From contig JAYUKW010000030.1 in the NCBI GenBank assembly GCA_043764155.1, positions 28,603-92,602 of the forward strand: a DNA stretch of 64,000 nucleotides, read 5' to 3'. This DNA comes from Bdellovibrionales bacterium. Its GTDB lineage: Bacteria > Bdellovibrionota > Bdellovibrionia > Bdellovibrionales > UBA1609. Made by a program: the position numbers and the translations under genes. The first letter of the stretch is position 1. Each line of letters starts with the position of its first letter. The notes below the pieces were generated by a model. That model did no database searches. It was not told the DNA's origin and saw only the letters and a list, made by a program, of their open reading frames with translations. This document shows, piece by piece, positions 38,304 to 42,866 of the stretch.

Positions 38304-39467
38304 ATGGTGGGATTAAAGTATTTTCTGTATAGTATTTTAATATCATATTTTTTTTGTTTATCTGTAAATGCTAAATATATTTATATTTTAGATTTTGATG
38401 GAACTCTAGTTGATGACGCTAGATTAAATAGCTCGTGGAAAACCCCTTGGATTTTAAGAAAAGTAGATCAATTAAGATCAAGCACTCAATTAAATAACTC
38501 GATTCGCAGTTCACCAGAGACCATTGAAGTCTCATACGGCGAATACATTCAAATGATGGGATTGTGGTCCGTTGGAAATGGATCCCTTGGCAGCTTTAAA
38601 GAAGTTGCATTAACTGATGACCCTTATTTAAAACGACCTAAAGTCATTATTCCTGGTCAGTACTATGTTGATCCGAACATCACATATAAATATTATCGAA
38701 ACGGTTCTCAAGGAGAAAGCCATCTCGTAAATAATTTTATTGAAGCTAGAAATAGAATTGAACGACAGAAATTAAACCCATTAGACTTTGCAGGACTTGC
38801 CTTTCCGGTTTTTGAAAAAGCCATGAGCCAGACAAGTACGGTCGGTGATGTCCATATATTTACCGCTCGAAATCAAACAGCGGATGAATTTCAAACTTTA
38901 TTTAATCAATTACAATTATTCGGATTTATAAATTATGCCACTGGTGAAAATAAACGAGGACTCCCAACTGCACCTACTATTCATCAACTTCAGGGAATTG
39001 ATTCTATTCTTTATGGAAGAAACTTGATTGAAGGCAAAAAATCTGTTGTTGAAAGCTTGATCCGTCAAATCGCAAATAGCTCTTCGACTCCGACTTTAGA
39101 TTATTCCGCTGAAAATCCTAATCTTATTGTTTCCACTCATACAATCATAGTGGCTGAGGATGATCCTATTAACATTAAAGCCTTAATGCTTTTGATGAAT
39201 GAATTATCGCATGCCCATACGACACGAAAATTAAAACTGGTATTAATGAACACGGGTTCTGATTCAATTTTAAATAAATCGCCCTTTCCGTATAACACTC
39301 GCTGGATTGTTTTTAATCAGGGCTTCCCCAGAGCTGCTATTGAAAATGAAATCAAAAACTACATAGGTGAAAATTCAATTCCACAAAATGTAGTACCTTT
39401 AAACTCTTTAACTCCTAATAGCGCTGCTATGTGTTCCGCTTTTTTAAATAACTCAAAGGAGCAATAA
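38304..39467 (+). CDS. exported HAD-superfamily phosphatase-like protein with C-terminal CxxFL tag
   Basis: Signal peptide ..SVNA; ILDFDGTL (motif I), IFTARN (II), GKK (III), AEDD (IV); CSAFLN near the C-terminus. Confidence 0.75.
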   Translation: MVGLKYFLYSILISYFFCLSVNAKYIYILDFDGTLVDDARLNSSWKTPWILRKVDQLRSSTQLNNSIRSSPETIEVSYGEYIQMMGLWSVGNGSLGSFKEVALTDDPYLKRPKVIIPGQYYVDPNITYKYYRNGSQGESHLVNNFIEARNRIERQKLNPLDFAGLAFPVFEKAMSQTSTVGDVHIFTARNQTADEFQTLFNQLQLFGFINYATGENKRGLPTAPTIHQLQGIDSILYGRNLIEGKKSVVESLIRQIANSSSTPTLDYSAENPNLIVSTHTIIVAEDDPINIKALMLLMNELSHAHTTRKLKLVLMNTGSDSILNKSPFPYNTRWIVFNQGFPRAAIENEIKNYIGENSIPQNVVPLNSLTPNSAAMCSAFLNNSKEQ

Positions 39468-42148
39468 TGAAATACCTAAGTGTAATTGTATTTAGCTCCA
39501 TCATTAAAATAAGCTTTGTTTTTAGTTCAACATCTTCTTTAGCATCAACAGAATGCTTAAACTTTTTATCCCAATCCTCTCAAACTGAGCTTACTCTAGG
39601 AGTCGATCAAGAGGTTATTGCACTTCAAGCTGCTGAGATATTATTTGAACACGCTATGACTTCGCCTTCACGTAAAAAGGTTAACCATGAATCACAACAC
39701 CAAGTAAATGGATATTTAATCGAAGTCGTAACCAACTTTTTTATACAAAATAAAAAAGTACCGACTGCAAATGAAATAGAAGCTTTGTTGAGTATTAGTT
39801 TAGGTCAAAGCGCCAAAGGCTTTTTTGCACAAATTTTAACCCATGGATTAGACGCCTACTTTCAAACTGACGGGGCACCAAACTCCATTTTTGAAATTTT
39901 ACAAGTGGCTGTTAATGTCGCCCGACGTTCAATATTTTTTCCATTCAAAGATCAACTTAGATTAGATGTAATGAAATTTTTTGCTTCACGCTTAAGAACC
40001 CCGTCGCTTTTAGAACTAGCTAAGCTTAAAAATTTAGATGAAAGAGTTATAAGTTTATTTATTCCAAATGCAGACAGCTTTATAAAAAAAGCGATTGAAT
40101 TAAATCCTGATCATATAAACTCAGTCCGTGAAATTATTCTAGCTGTCTACTTTCGAGCTTTAAGCCAAAAAGATTTGGAAGAATCTAAACGAACTCAACC
40201 AACTTCGCCGACTTATGAAAGCTTATTTCTGTCCTTAAGAGCTTCAAAAATCTTACCTGATTTATCTAAAGATATTGAACGAGGCATCTTTACTGTAGAT
40301 CATTTAAAAATACTTATTGATGGTCATCCAGAATTTTCATCATTCATGCGATTGAGTTTATTTTCAGGATTAAAAAGTTTAGAAAATACGGCGAGACTAC
40401 AACGCCCAGGTGCCTTTAAAAACTTTATTCCCGCAGAAGTATATAATCCAGAACGAACAACCGCCTTACTTAAAGCCATGAAACAAAAACAAGGTTTTCT
40501 GATCACTTCAGTGAATGCAGGAATGCCAATCAATGAAGCTATGTTAATCACAATGCTTAAATTTGCTCGCGAAAAAAATTATGACATTGTTGTGATCCCA
40601 ACTGGTGGAATTTTGGATGGTTTAGATTCAAGACTTTTAGAACACTCTAATATTCATATTCTTACACATACAGTTCAAAATAAATTTCTAAGACTTTGGA
40701 ATATCCCTGTCCTTCCTAAAAATCAAAATGGTTTAGCTTCGCTTAGTAACCCTAAACAACATAAACCGATGCAAACAACCATCGTTGGGCATCCAACAAT
40801 TCAACATTACAATGTACCAACTGCGACCAATAGCTCCAGACATACATCGATTTGGTCCACCGGCTCATTAAGTCAAAACAACTACCCTTACCGACATGCA
40901 GTTCAAGGTCGAACGGCATCGCTTGCTAAAAATCAGCATACTAACGGATTTTTAGTTTTAGAAAAAGCCGACGGAGAATCTGGATTCGACAAAGAAGGTG
41001 TTTCAAACTTTTGGCACACTCGCCCCGTTTACTTTACAGATGATTTTAAAACCTTAACAAAAATAGCAGGCTTTACTGATAATGGGACAAAATATTTTGT
41101 TACTGAATCTGATAGATATAATTTAAATTCAGTCAAAAAAGTTGCGGCTAAAATTGATACCTTAGTGCTTGGGGATTTACATGAAAGACTATCAGACTCT
41201 ATGTTTTTAAATGCACTTGTAGACTATTTAAAATCACATCCAGAAATTAAACGTATCGTTTTACATGATCCAATAGATGGCGGATCACACAATCGACATG
41301 AAGCTAAATCCATTTCATTGCTTCGTAAAAAGTTTGCTAAAGGCGAGTTAGACTATCACAAAGAAATGATGGGACTGGTCCAAGTGATTAATGCATTAAC
41401 TTCTATTCGACCAGATTTAAATATAATCGTCGCAGACTCAAATCATAGTTACTGGGGACAACAATTATTAAGCGGAGCTACCGAGTTTCAAGAAATCGCC
41501 AATGGGGACTTTTTAAGTGAGCTTAGATTTGCACAAAGAGTTTATAGTTTTTCCGATCCACTAGAATATGTTTTAAAATATAGAAATGATTTTATTAATA
41601 ATCTTCCAAGACACTCACAAATTGAAATGCTTAAAACAGCTATTTTAGTTGAAAATCCGAACCAAGTTGCAGTCTTAGGATTTGGTCGAAATTATGTAGT
41701 TGGACCGGAGTATAGACAAACTCATGTGAACTTCCATGGACACCAAGGCGCTAATGGGGCAAAGCCCTCTCCTAAGTCTCACGCTATTGGGTCGGAGAGC
41801 GCCATCACAGGGGATTCCCACCAATCCTATATACTTGGAAACTGGATGAGCGTTGGAACTGCGACAGCCCTACAGGTGGGTTACAATGATGGGGGTTATT
41901 CTGCATGGAGTAATTCTTTTGCAGTTATTTATAATGATGGATCCAAACAGCTGTTTACTTACTCCAGCGAAACTGGGACATTTATGGCTCGTGAAGCTGC
42001 GACATCAATGACCGAAGAGGAATTTTTTGGAACCGAAGCTCTAGAAATTTTAATGAATGACAATGATGTAGTTCAAGGTGTTATCGTCGATCAAAATACA
42101 CATATTATAAATTCACTTTCAAACGCAGGCCGAAGAAAAGATAGGTAG
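39467..42148 (+). CDS. exported protein with C-terminal calcineurin-like metallophosphoesterase resembling phage T5 A1-family proteins
   Basis: Signal-like N-terminus + CLNFLS; FLITS..., STGSLSQNNY, LGDLHE, LHDPIDGGSHNRH, SNH, FHGHQGANGA, GDSH, GYNDGGYSAWS; TAATG coupling to the upstream gene. Confidence 0.75.
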   Translation: MKYLSVIVFSSIIKISFVFSSTSSLASTECLNFLSQSSQTELTLGVDQEVIALQAAEILFEHAMTSPSRKKVNHESQHQVNGYLIEVVTNFFIQNKKVPTANEIEALLSISLGQSAKGFFAQILTHGLDAYFQTDGAPNSIFEILQVAVNVARRSIFFPFKDQLRLDVMKFFASRLRTPSLLELAKLKNLDERVISLFIPNADSFIKKAIELNPDHINSVREIILAVYFRALSQKDLEESKRTQPTSPTYESLFLSLRASKILPDLSKDIERGIFTVDHLKILIDGHPEFSSFMRLSLFSGLKSLENTARLQRPGAFKNFIPAEVYNPERTTALLKAMKQKQGFLITSVNAGMPINEAMLITMLKFAREKNYDIVVIPTGGILDGLDSRLLEHSNIHILTHTVQNKFLRLWNIPVLPKNQNGLASLSNPKQHKPMQTTIVGHPTIQHYNVPTATNSSRHTSIWSTGSLSQNNYPYRHAVQGRTASLAKNQHTNGFLVLEKADGESGFDKEGVSNFWHTRPVYFTDDFKTLTKIAGFTDNGTKYFVTESDRYNLNSVKKVAAKIDTLVLGDLHERLSDSMFLNALVDYLKSHPEIKRIVLHDPIDGGSHNRHEAKSISLLRKKFAKGELDYHKEMMGLVQVINALTSIRPDLNIIVADSNHSYWGQQLLSGATEFQEIANGDFLSELRFAQRVYSFSDPLEYVLKYRNDFINNLPRHSQIEMLKTAILVENPNQVAVLGFGRNYVVGPEYRQTHVNFHGHQGANGAKPSPKSHAIGSESAITGDSHQSYILGNWMSVGTATALQVGYNDGGYSAWSNSFAVIYNDGSKQLFTYSSETGTFMAREAATSMTEEEFFGTEALEILMNDNDVVQGVIVDQNTHIINSLSNAGRRKDR

Positions 42149-42170: not shown

Positions 42171-42185
42171 TAGTAAAAAATAAAT

Positions 42186-42866
42186 TTATTTTTTGTCAAA
42201 AGACATCACTTCGAACTGTCGAATATAGTCTTTTATTTTGGGACCTAGGTGATCCGAATTGAAGATATAGGGCCCAAAAATTTCTTCATCAGGATTTACA
42301 ACTTCACCTGTTTTTAAGGCATAATTATTTTCAACTAATCTATTCCAGACTTTTTTTGCATATGTGGATTGGTGTGTTGAAGAAAGTAAAACGTGGCCCG
42401 GATTAAGTTCAAAAAATTTAGATGCCGCCAAAAGATAAGTTAAAAACCCAACCCCTTTACCTCTATATCTATCTAACATAATCAATGAAAGGCTTGTGCG
42501 CCAAGTATTTTCAATGACTTTGGATTTTGTAATATCTAACCTCATAATCGTAATACCTTCATAAAGTACATTTAAAGTTAGCACATCTTCAATATCATCA
42601 AACGACTTTTCGCTAATAAATTCTAAGTGAATTTCTTTTGTTTCAAGTCCTAATTCTTGCCATGCCTTAGATGGATCAAAGTCACCAGTAGTATACTTAT
42701 AATTTTCAATATAAGCGTGATTAGAATCCGAATTCAAAAAATAATTGCAGGCCTTTCTTTGAATATTAATTTTATATGGATTTTTTATTTTGGATTTATC
42801 ATTCCTAGAGTGCGAAAGCACAGGAATCAAAAAAAGTAGAATCAAAAATTTTAATTTCATTTTCAC
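42186..42866 (-). CDS. exported GNAT-like acetyltransferase with CxxFL tag
   Basis: Signal peptide; CNYFLN at aa 40-45; RYRGKGVG acetyl-CoA loop; SSTHQSTYAKKVWNRL. Confidence 0.68.
   Translation of the reverse strand: MKMKLKFLILLFLIPVLSHSRNDKSKIKNPYKINIQRKACNYFLNSDSNHAYIENYKYTTGDFDPSKAWQELGLETKEIHLEFISEKSFDDIEDVLTLNVLYEGITIMRLDITKSKVIENTWRTSLSLIMLDRYRGKGVGFLTYLLAASKFFELNPGHVLLSSTHQSTYAKKVWNRLVENNYALKTGEVVNPDEEIFGPYIFNSDHLGPKIKDYIRQFEVMSFDKK

Follow-up and report, generated by a model that had tools for sequence, protein, structure and literature searches.

We analysed a stretch of 64,000 nucleotides from contig 30 (JAYUKW010000030.1) of the genome of a Bdellovibrionales bacterium, referred to below as the window, whose numbering is used throughout, and found in it an exported variant of a known phage enzyme family, encoded in a conserved operon of two genes, P1 and P2. 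P1 (38304-39467, forward strand, 387 amino acids) is a predicted exported HAD-superfamily phosphatase with a large insert, as indicated by its motifs and predicted fold, and P2 (39467-42148, forward strand, 893 amino acids) is likewise a predicted exported protein, in which homology distinguishes a lineage-specific N-terminal half from a C-terminal half resembling A1 of phage T5; a third gene, P3 (42186-42866, reverse strand, 226 amino acids), is convergent to P2. The most novel part of the finding is a short tag with a lone cysteine, present towards one end of each of these proteins. From homology, motif conservation, gene linkage and tag statistics we infer the activities of the pair, its site of action and the role of the tag, and the reading that we consider moderately probable is that P1 and P2 are a coupled, Sec-exported enzyme pair, conserved across Bdellovibrionota, which would act as DNase and nucleotidase on prey DNA. 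An earlier reading of the locus from its letters (below, the sequence-only reading) had described the same three open reading frames (ORFs), with P1 and P2 coupled through TAATG and a convergent third gene, and our coordinates and overlap agree with it.

The A1-like identity of P2, already proposed in that reading, was borne out by three comparisons. In the PHROG collection, phrog_1745 ('DNA transfer protein') matches P2 residues 401-834 with an E value of 6.3e-45, over profile positions 155-536 of 542. With full P2, tblastn retrieved 1083 phage records at 22-25% identity, annotated as A1 or DNA transfer protein, and with residues 338-893 it retrieved 640, which include T5-like phages of enterobacteria, Vibrio and Aeromonas, Flavobacterium podophages, phiCbK-like Caulobacter phages, a Xanthomonas jumbo phage and a Microcystis phage. 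The hhalign comparison of a 19-homologue P2 profile with a T5-like A1 gave a probability of 98.5% (E = 2.3e-15, 419 columns), in a register that sets P2 residues 338-832 against A1 residues 111-566 of 573. Five motif blocks are paired in this alignment (P2/A1: GDLHE/GDVHA, HDPIDGGSHNRHE/HDVHDFTSRNHHN, DSNHSY/ESNHDL, HGHQGANG/HGHNGING and GDSHQS/GHTHTA), every conserved His/Asp/Asn block being common to P2 and phage A1, and none of the P2 residues D570, H572, D601, N609, N659, H660, H757 and H759 varies among the 19 bacterial homologues. On this profile and motif evidence, residues 338-832 of P2 (40478-41962, forward strand) are homologous to T5 A1 and make up a predicted metallophosphoesterase domain, and a motif series of the D-x-H, G-D, G-N-H, H and G-H-x-H type is visible in P2 by eye. 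In a protein atlas, the clusters nearest to the C-terminal half of P2 were 85-100% viral at 0.94-0.95 (20 of 30 matches); viral Metallophos clusters scored 0.88 against P2, which is to be taken as a lead only, and residues 31-400 gave no usable match there. The N-terminal extension (residues 36-337; 39572-40477, forward strand) is without counterpart in phage A1, and the N-terminal region of P2 is conserved within the Bdellovibrionota homologues.

According to a recent preprint, T5 A1 is a predicted metallo-phosphatase that is necessary and sufficient for degradation of the host chromosome, shares one operon with A2 and with dmp, the gene for a deoxynucleoside monophosphate (dNMP) phosphatase, and belongs to a family described as mainly a Demerecviridae trait (bioRxiv 10.64898/2026.04.02.716235). 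Compared with A1, P2 adds a signal peptide, the cysteine tag and about 300 N-terminal residues, and it is encoded chromosomally amid housekeeping genes, whereas the phage proteins work in the same cytoplasm in which they are made; A1 is a pre-early protein of T5 that also functions in second-step DNA transfer. The two systems have in common their predicted chemistry, DNA breakdown followed by dephosphorylation, and the neighbourhood of a phosphatase gene, A1 adjoining a DxDGT phosphatase in T5-like phages as P2 adjoins P1; the order is reversed, with the HAD gene first in the bacterial operon. In two Demerecviridae loci, from a T5-like Salmonella phage (L008) and Aeromonas phage AhSzw-1 (L139), dmp lies 70-550 bp after A1 and A2 lies upstream. 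No A2 partner was seen among the genes scanned around P1 and P2, a scan that included no search aimed at A2.

P1 is a divergent HAD phosphatase, as judged from its motifs and a predicted fold. It retains motif I (D30-x-D32-G33-T34), motif II (T187 in F-T-A-R189), motif III (K245) and motif IV (E285-D286, with D287), and A2, D30, D32, R189, K245, E285 and D286 are invariant in an alignment of 15 rows that includes homologues down to 27% identity. When its AlphaFold2 (AF2) model (predicted local distance difference test, pLDDT, 83.5; predicted template modelling score, pTM, 0.82) was compared by VIA-align, the best match was the 3'-phosphatase of T4 Pnkp (Z 7.5, root-mean-square deviation 3.7, 132 amino acids), with Pnkp1 (Z 7.3), Ceg4 (Z 6.8), the Lem4 HAD domain (Z 6.5) and AphA (Z 6.3) among the further ones; going by title, HAD or P-type ATPase domains account for about half of the 50 rows, with Z between 5.5 and 7.5, and the HAD alignments start at residues 21-25. 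Four weak matches, one of them a phage protein with a PNKP phosphatase domain, were obtained from BFVD at E<=1e-3, and their template modelling (TM) scores were 0.25-0.33. Ceg4 and Lem4 are Legionella HAD phosphatase effectors that are translocated, in their case by type IV delivery and without a Sec signal, and since other HAD enzymes reach Z scores at least as good, no specific kinship with P1 is indicated. As for the phage phosphatase, T5 Dmp starts with D-L-D-G-T and has a C-T-A-R motif, and both BLASTP and hhalign align P1 with Dmp over HAD motif I only (hhalign probability 14.7% with one Dmp and 22% with three aligned Dmp sequences, 14-15 columns); P1 has 387 amino acids against 209-244 in Dmp, and tblastn with P1 found no match at E<=1 in the phage collection. 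Judged from these comparisons, P1 resembles Dmp in predicted function and in gene neighbourhood, and homology beyond the superfamily is not supported.

In each of the six related loci (L002-L007) the gene immediately upstream of P2 is P1, and the two genes are translationally coupled, as judged from a TAATG stop/start overlap (39465-39469, forward strand) preceded by AAGGAG 6 nt upstream. The context truA-rplM-rpsI-TraB-P1-P2 is common to L002 and L003, and in L003 an M23 gene comes immediately after P2. Among 12 loci from other Bdellovibrionota families, 11 encode secreted-type A1-like proteins of 687-902 amino acids, with a signal peptide and then a Cys, and a HAD gene is directly upstream on the same strand in 10 of these 11 (8 recognised by BLAST and 2 by motif and position), 9 of the 10 HAD genes having a Cys near the C-terminus; the secreted-type A1-like gene in L130 has no HAD neighbour. 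At larger scale, of the 301 phylum genomes sampled, 40 (13%), from 33 of 170 genera, have a phrog_1745 match, as against none of the 14 control genomes, and P2 is present in all 5 genomes of the bacterium's own genus, this genome included (4 of 4 without it). P3 adjoins P2 only in L002, the closest locus, and is absent from L003 and from the more distant loci L004-L007. Given that P1 and P2 are linked across loci and that P3 is mostly absent, the unit is, on the evidence of gene order, an old two-gene operon of Bdellovibrionota with P3 as an independent neighbour, and not the three-gene cassette that the sequence-only reading had put forward. The twelfth of these loci, L129 (genome G351, from the same order as this bacterium), contains a 701-amino-acid A1-like ORF that lacks a signal peptide and lies among large ORFs of helicase or ATPase appearance, and is probably a phage-derived region.

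The N-termini of P1, P2 and P3, assessed by eye and with a crude hydropathy script, each have a basic n-region, a hydrophobic stretch and a small-x-small site, so that the signal-like peptides ascribed to all three in the sequence-only reading were upheld. The signal-like peptide of P1 covers residues 1-24 (38304-38375, forward strand) and ends in S-V-N-A before K25, and that of P2 covers approximately residues 1-27 (39467-39547, forward strand). The pattern recurs in homologues: the N-terminus is hydrophobic in 15 of 15 P1 homologues, mostly ending in A-K just ahead of HAD motif I; it is hydrophobic with a small-x-small site in 19 aligned P2 homologues (two rows start inside the stretch); and a signal-like N-terminus is found in 13 aligned P3 homologues.

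In addition to these peptides, each protein contains the motif C-x-x-F-L-[NS] exactly once, and its Cys is the only one of the mature protein. In P1 the motif is C-terminal (C377-S-A-F-L-N382; 39432-39449, forward strand) and coincides in the AF2 model with a short low-confidence helix (375-382); in P2 it is N-terminal (C30-L-N-F-L-S35; 39554-39571, forward strand) and holds the only Cys among 893 residues; and in P3 it lies in a disordered linker behind the signal peptide (C40-N-Y-F-L-N45; 42732-42749, reverse strand) and holds the sole Cys of the protein. The tag Cys is invariant in every alignment (C377 in 15/15 rows, C30 in 19/19 and C40 in 13/13), as is L381 of P1 (15/15). In other families a Cys stands behind the signal peptide of 11 of 11 A1-like genes, even where the [FY]-L form is missing.

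We then scanned 2564 crude non-overlapping ORFs of the genome (2.73 Mb in 37 contigs, completeness score 100%), calling signal peptides with a crude script. At residues 15-50 there are 50 occurrences of the pattern C-x-x-[FY]-L, the last 25 residues hold 20 and the remaining positions 59, against 9.0±3.0 (maximum 15), 5.9±2.4 (maximum 13) and 58±6.4, respectively, in 40 whole-protein shuffles, and against 12.9 (N) and 4.8 (C) in shuffles confined to the end zones. A total of 43 N-terminal tags sit a few residues behind a signal-like hydrophobic stretch, and 17 tags are in the last 15 residues, often as the final six. Of the 43 N-type proteins, 34 have no further Cys downstream of the tag, and of the 17 C-type proteins, 10 have no other Cys from residue 30 up to the tag. 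Single cysteines show a similar placement among 541 signal-peptide-like proteins without lipobox, 84 of which have one Cys: 63 of these are at an end (49 no more than 25 residues from the mature N-terminus and 14 no more than 15 from the C-terminus) and 21 are elsewhere. The consensus is N-x-C-x-x-[FY]-L, with Asn favoured at -2, and a small-x-small site lies 2-10 residues upstream of the Cys; the lipobox [LVI][ASTVI][GAS]-C is not fitted, positions -3 to -1 being variable in the 43 N-type tags (-1: S, I, E, T, Q and others; -2: N, S, D). About 57 genes of the genome carry the tag besides P1-P3. The motif that the sequence-only reading saw in its three genes is therefore real, present once per protein and above shuffled expectation, but it is proteome-wide and does not mark a cassette.

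In 400 kb of a genome of the same genus the strict form gave 6 N-zone, 6 C-zone and 10 middle matches, and in 400 kb each of two other genera no strict [FY]-L tag was found behind signal peptides, only looser C-x-x-hydrophobic end tags. No hub protein with many tags was detected; only three ORFs have two strict motifs, and two of these are identical 720-amino-acid copies. A rule matching the C-terminal tag of one gene to the N-terminal tag of its neighbour was considered and rejected, with 1 of 9 adjacent pairs (P1-P2) fitting it within one operon. NCBIfam models did not match the three tag-bearing proteins P1-P3, and no description of the tag, or of an A1-like gene in Bdellovibrio, was found in the literature searched, which included PMC11656739, PMC11870529 and PMC12622784, supplementary gene tables lying outside the search. 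The tag is thus real and, as far as the literature searched goes, undescribed. It resembles the lipobox, MYXO-CTERM/exosortase-type tails and type IX secretion system C-terminal domains in being a short end element on many unrelated exported proteins of one lineage, and shares with the first two a single invariant Cys. It differs from them in occurring at either end, in its length of about six residues and in having no transmembrane stretch behind it, and from the lipobox also in lying after the signal-peptidase site with no lipobox ahead. Two further tagged ORFs touch the window, one of 141 amino acids (62259-62684, reverse strand) with a signal peptide and then C-S-Q-Y-L-N, its Cys at residue 21, and one of 415 amino acids whose start lies shortly ahead of the window and which extends to approximately position 621. 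On contig 36, the identical 720-amino-acid ORFs (926-3088 and 80203-82365) lie in opposite orientation near the contig ends, and between them are two identical tagged ORFs of 184 amino acids (39282-39836 and 43455-44009); the arrangement looks like a large inverted duplication or repeat.

When 40 of the 57 other tagged ORFs were compared with Pfam, 24 had no family and 16 had a match at E<=0.01. Twelve of the 16 are above the Pfam cut-off, namely a SpoVR+DUF444 fusion, HNH_repeat, HNH_4, a GT10 fucosyltransferase with TPR, amidoligase_2, thioredoxin, ankyrin repeats, DUF7790, two TPR proteins, a papain-like peptidase and Fic; the four below it are PrkA-like, GshA-like, DUF6017 and C39-like. 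Classic periplasmic housekeeping families (binding proteins, chaperones, PBPs) were not seen among the scanned tagged ORFs, a thioredoxin-fold protein being the nearest, and by family content the tagged proteins look effector-like. Several are enzymes of types that need ATP, acetyl-CoA or nucleotide sugars. The sequence-only reading had argued that exporting cytoplasmic-type enzymes makes little sense unless they reach another cell; the argument fails for a DNase and a phosphatase, since the secretion of such enzymes for nucleic-acid scavenging is common among bacteria, but because of these cofactor-dependent enzymes it has more force for the GNAT-fold P3 and the other cytoplasmic-type tagged proteins. 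It should be borne in mind that in B. bacteriovorus an ankyrin protein with a signal peptide is reported to be a self-protection factor (PMC4686830). On contig 29, the SpoVR+DUF444 fusion (1063 amino acids) and a weak PrkA-like protein (850 amino acids), both with signal peptide and tag, are encoded at 18885-21437 and 28285-31476 (L041, L040). Relatives of SpoVR, DUF444 and PrkA proteins normally form a cytoplasmic trio.

With respect to secretion machinery, the genome has four secretins and, on contig 13 (85187-96205; L125), a complete-looking GspC(PDZ)-GspD-GspE-GspF-GspG operon, in which a tagged ankyrin-repeat gene and a gene for a 437-amino-acid HNH endonuclease lie between gspD and gspE. 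VirB4 and TssC were not found in this 100%-complete genome. We tentatively propose, as a possibility that falls well short of probable, that N-x-C-x-x-[FY]-L is a new terminal sorting tag, that is, a six-residue amphipathic turn with a sole Cys that could stand at either end and would mark about 60 fast-evolving, effector-like, Sec-exported proteins for a second, disulfide-assisted step, possibly type II secretion, that would carry them from the predator into the cell under attack. The P1-P2 pair would then be the oldest client, because both of its cysteines are kept across the whole phylum.

Taking these observations together, P2 would cut DNA outside the cytoplasm of the producer, in the likeliest case that of a prey cell under attack, either within an intact prey cytoplasm or after the prey membrane is breached, and P1 would then dephosphorylate the nucleotides set free or the ends of the DNA, with the outcome that the prey genome is killed and nucleosides and phosphate are freed. 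This would be the same division of labour as that of T5 A1 and its neighbour, the dNMP phosphatase Dmp. The tag may serve as a docking or sorting element acting through a disulfide, either for hand-over to an outer-membrane export step, type II secretion being present and VirB4 and TssC not found, or for covalent coupling of partners. The proposed action of the pair on prey DNA fits, by analogy, with observations on B. exovorus, which is reported to digest prey DNA in situ faster than prey protein by means of unidentified 'early-secreted effectors' (10.1101/2023.10.25.563945). The loci related to P1-P2 come from metagenome-assembled genomes of Bdellovibrionales, Pseudobdellovibrionaceae or Bdellovibrionota. 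Pseudobdellovibrionaceae, which holds Bdellovibrio and Pseudobdellovibrio in the NCBI taxonomy, is described as a family of bacterial predators (PMC11870529), and from this family predation by the genus in question is plausible. Compared with the secreted hydrolases and nucleases known from Bdellovibrio, P1 and P2 share Sec-dependent export in a member of the same family; the differences are the A1-like fold expected of P2, where the Bdellovibrio nucleases are of the endonuclease-I type, its place in a fixed operon with a HAD phosphatase, and the terminal lone-Cys tag, of which the literature searched makes no mention.

Several points weigh against this reading. The predatory host assumed in the sequence-only reading is backed by relatives in a family of predators, but for the genus itself predation is undocumented, and all that is known of its relatives are metagenome assemblies. 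Within the family, P2 is present in 21 of 109 genomes, spread over 9 of 35 genera, and with so patchy a distribution the P1-P2 pair is not a core predation function. Moreover, B. bacteriovorus reportedly takes up nucleoside monophosphates intact, which would weaken the need for a nucleotidase. Curated collections offered little: P2 has no meaningful match in Pfam or NCBIfam, with none to PF00149 (Metallophos) at E<=1, and T5-like A1 and Dmp themselves have no Pfam family; the HAD identity suggested earlier for P1 stands on its four motifs but not on any family in Pfam (E<=1), NCBIfam (E<=1) or PHROGs (E<=0.1); and P3 has none in Pfam, NCBIfam or PHROG, is not matched by acetyltransferase models and gave nothing in a PDB profile search. 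Searches of PDB sequences with P1-P3, as single sequences and as family profiles, returned chance-level rows only (capsid VP1, EGFR kinase, LptF), Foldseek found no match of P1 in the PDB at E<=1e-3, and the VIA-align Z range of P1 is middling and is reached also by models without a clear match. With regard to the tag, P1-P2 is the only pair that combines a C- with an N-terminal tag in one operon, which makes a general pairing role doubtful, and the link between the tag and type II secretion comes from one gene neighbourhood (L125).

The most serious alternative is ordinary scavenging, in which P2 and P1 would break down free DNA and nucleotides in the periplasm or the medium for phosphate and nucleosides, with no delivery into a living cell, and the tag would be a folding or oligomerisation feature. 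In many Gram-negative bacteria scavenging is the task of metallophosphoesterases and HAD acid phosphatases of the periplasm, and P1 and P2 resemble enzymes of the UshA/CpdB and AphA types in their two superfamilies and in Sec export; the periplasmic HAD acid phosphatase AphA is, moreover, among the structural neighbours of P1. Export of P1 and P2 involves a Sec-type signal only, in a genome where neither VirB4 nor TssC was found, and the early breakage of the prey inner membrane described for B. exovorus would let enzymes reach the DNA without translocation (10.1101/2023.10.25.563945). However, no sequence relation to the UshA/CpdB or AphA types was detected, and the only detectable relatives of P2 outside the phylum are phage A1 proteins, which act on a host chromosome, and not 5'-nucleotidases, and P2 has no Metallophos match in Pfam. 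The tag is also carried by proteins whose substrates are confined to the cytoplasm, such as the GNAT-fold, Fic, amidoligase, GT10 and SpoVR+DUF444 proteins. On balance we regard scavenging as possible, if rather unlikely.

A further alternative concerns the tag rather than the enzymes, and supposes that it serves this pair in particular, with a disulfide between the lone cysteines of P1 and P2 that rejoins both proteins into a covalent two-enzyme complex, whereas the genome-wide motif would be a separate or derived use. It would account for the co-conservation of C377 and C30 across the phylum, and for the fact that in other families a Cys recurs near the end of most HAD genes and behind the signal peptide of every A1-like gene, also outside the [FY]-L form. 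A complex prediction for P2 residues 25-400 with P1 residues 24-387 (score 0.00, mark 0.32) speaks neither for nor against binding. The other tagged genes are mostly solitary or stand as N-type beside N-type, and the A1-like gene of L130 is of the secreted type without a HAD partner, for which reasons we consider a pair-specific disulfide unlikely.

The version put forward in the sequence-only reading, in which three co-functioning host-takeover enzymes derived from phages form one domesticated cassette injected into the prey cytoplasm, fared worse. It draws on the A1-like nature of P2, on the A1-Dmp neighbourhood kept by T5-like phages, on the presence of the tag in all three genes and on P3, which with a GNAT fold would need acetyl-CoA. 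P3, encoded separately from P1-P2, is a predicted exported GNAT-fold protein: its AF2 core (residues 60-226) is mostly above pLDDT 90, with residues 20-59 below 50, and the Foldseek rows listed from the PDB, about 35 at ranks up to 50, are all GNAT-fold acyltransferases or proteins containing a GNAT domain (probability 0.98-1.00), the best among the rows listed being 4ava (E = 6.7e-4). In GNAT proteins the acyl-CoA pyrophosphate is bound by motif A, [QR]-x-x-G-x-[GA], to which R135-G-K-G138-V-G140 of P3 corresponds, G140 being invariant and G present at position 138 in 11 of 13 rows. The GNAT identity claimed earlier is therefore upheld by fold and motif A, though not by a curated model. P3 is a near-orphan, with 17 proteins at E<=1e-3 in an exhaustive search of 1.84 billion representatives, and a word-based homologue search returned P3 only.

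The phage origin of the cassette was examined with a quick maximum-likelihood tree of 37 proteins (7 phage A1, 29 bacterial with signal peptide and 1 signal-less bacterial), which is unrooted and gives no direction of transfer, has several long branches and samples 7 of more than 640 phage records. Phage A1 proteins lie on one side of a branch with a Shimodaira-Hasegawa-like approximate likelihood ratio test (SH-aLRT) value of 99, the secreted bacterial forms make up one group (88), and the signal-less L129 protein is on a very long branch beside them; in this unrooted tree the bacterial A1-like forms are not nested among the seven sampled phage proteins. The domestication of phage genes therefore found no backing in P2, nor in P1, with no phage match and a Dmp alignment confined to motif I, nor in P3, with no PHROG match. 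Considering also the absence of P3 from L003, which has the same context, and from L004-L007, and the spread of the tag over the rest of the genome, we judge the cassette improbable. Finally, that the motif should be due to chance or be an atypical lipoprotein box is very improbable, given that a Cys shortly behind a signal peptide is indeed typical of lipoproteins but both end-zone counts exceed their shuffle maxima, the positions before the Cys are variable with a small-x-small site upstream, and 17 of the tags are C-terminal.

The surroundings of the operon are unremarkable. Upstream are genes for SDR, NmrA, aspartate-semialdehyde dehydrogenase, TruA, rplM, rpsI and TraB/GumN, and downstream those for an M23 peptidase, PP2C, a TonB-like protein, a DUF11 protein and OmpA; integrase, capsid, terminase or other prophage genes were not present among the neighbours scanned, in agreement with the sequence-only reading, and the neighbours are housekeeping genes. 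The G+C content at the locus (0.34-0.37) is similar to that of the rest of the window, without a shift in composition. A terminator-like hairpin 3' of the TraB/GumN gene (37962-37993, forward strand; 14-pair stem followed by a T run) suggests that P1-P2 is a transcription unit of its own, and a perfect palindrome with 10-bp arms between P2 and P3 (42147-42170, no strand assigned) is a candidate two-way terminator; both come from a consensus scan whose promoter and terminator totals did not exceed those of shuffled sequences, so they are suggestions only. No Rfam family reached its gathering score anywhere in the window, and for 38304-42866 no RNA runs were listed and three metagenome DNA runs matched, with word shares of 0.06-0.10. 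Elsewhere in the window, a 1104-amino-acid DUF11-domain protein (45887-49201, reverse strand) overlaps a stretch of higher G+C content (46001-48000, 0.47 against about 0.35 elsewhere), and upstream of truA (31962-35013, forward strand) are ORFs of 583 and 426 amino acids with no Pfam family at E<=1e-4, the latter conserved in L002 and L003.

The locus addresses two open questions, how predators of the Bdellovibrio type destroy prey DNA so fast and how they get enzymes inside prey. It offers a concrete candidate, a secreted homologue of a phage protein that is sufficient for chromosome destruction, fixed to a phosphatase, and it gives the A1 family a large exported branch in a bacterial phylum, Bdellovibrionota. 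Linear recognition signals for type II secretion are hard to define, and the tag might be such a signal for a secretin-dependent pathway. Secretion in B. bacteriovorus was called 'largely unexplored' in a toolbox paper of 2025 (PMC12622784), and if the tag is a sorting signal it would provide a sequence handle for listing the effector set of the predator.

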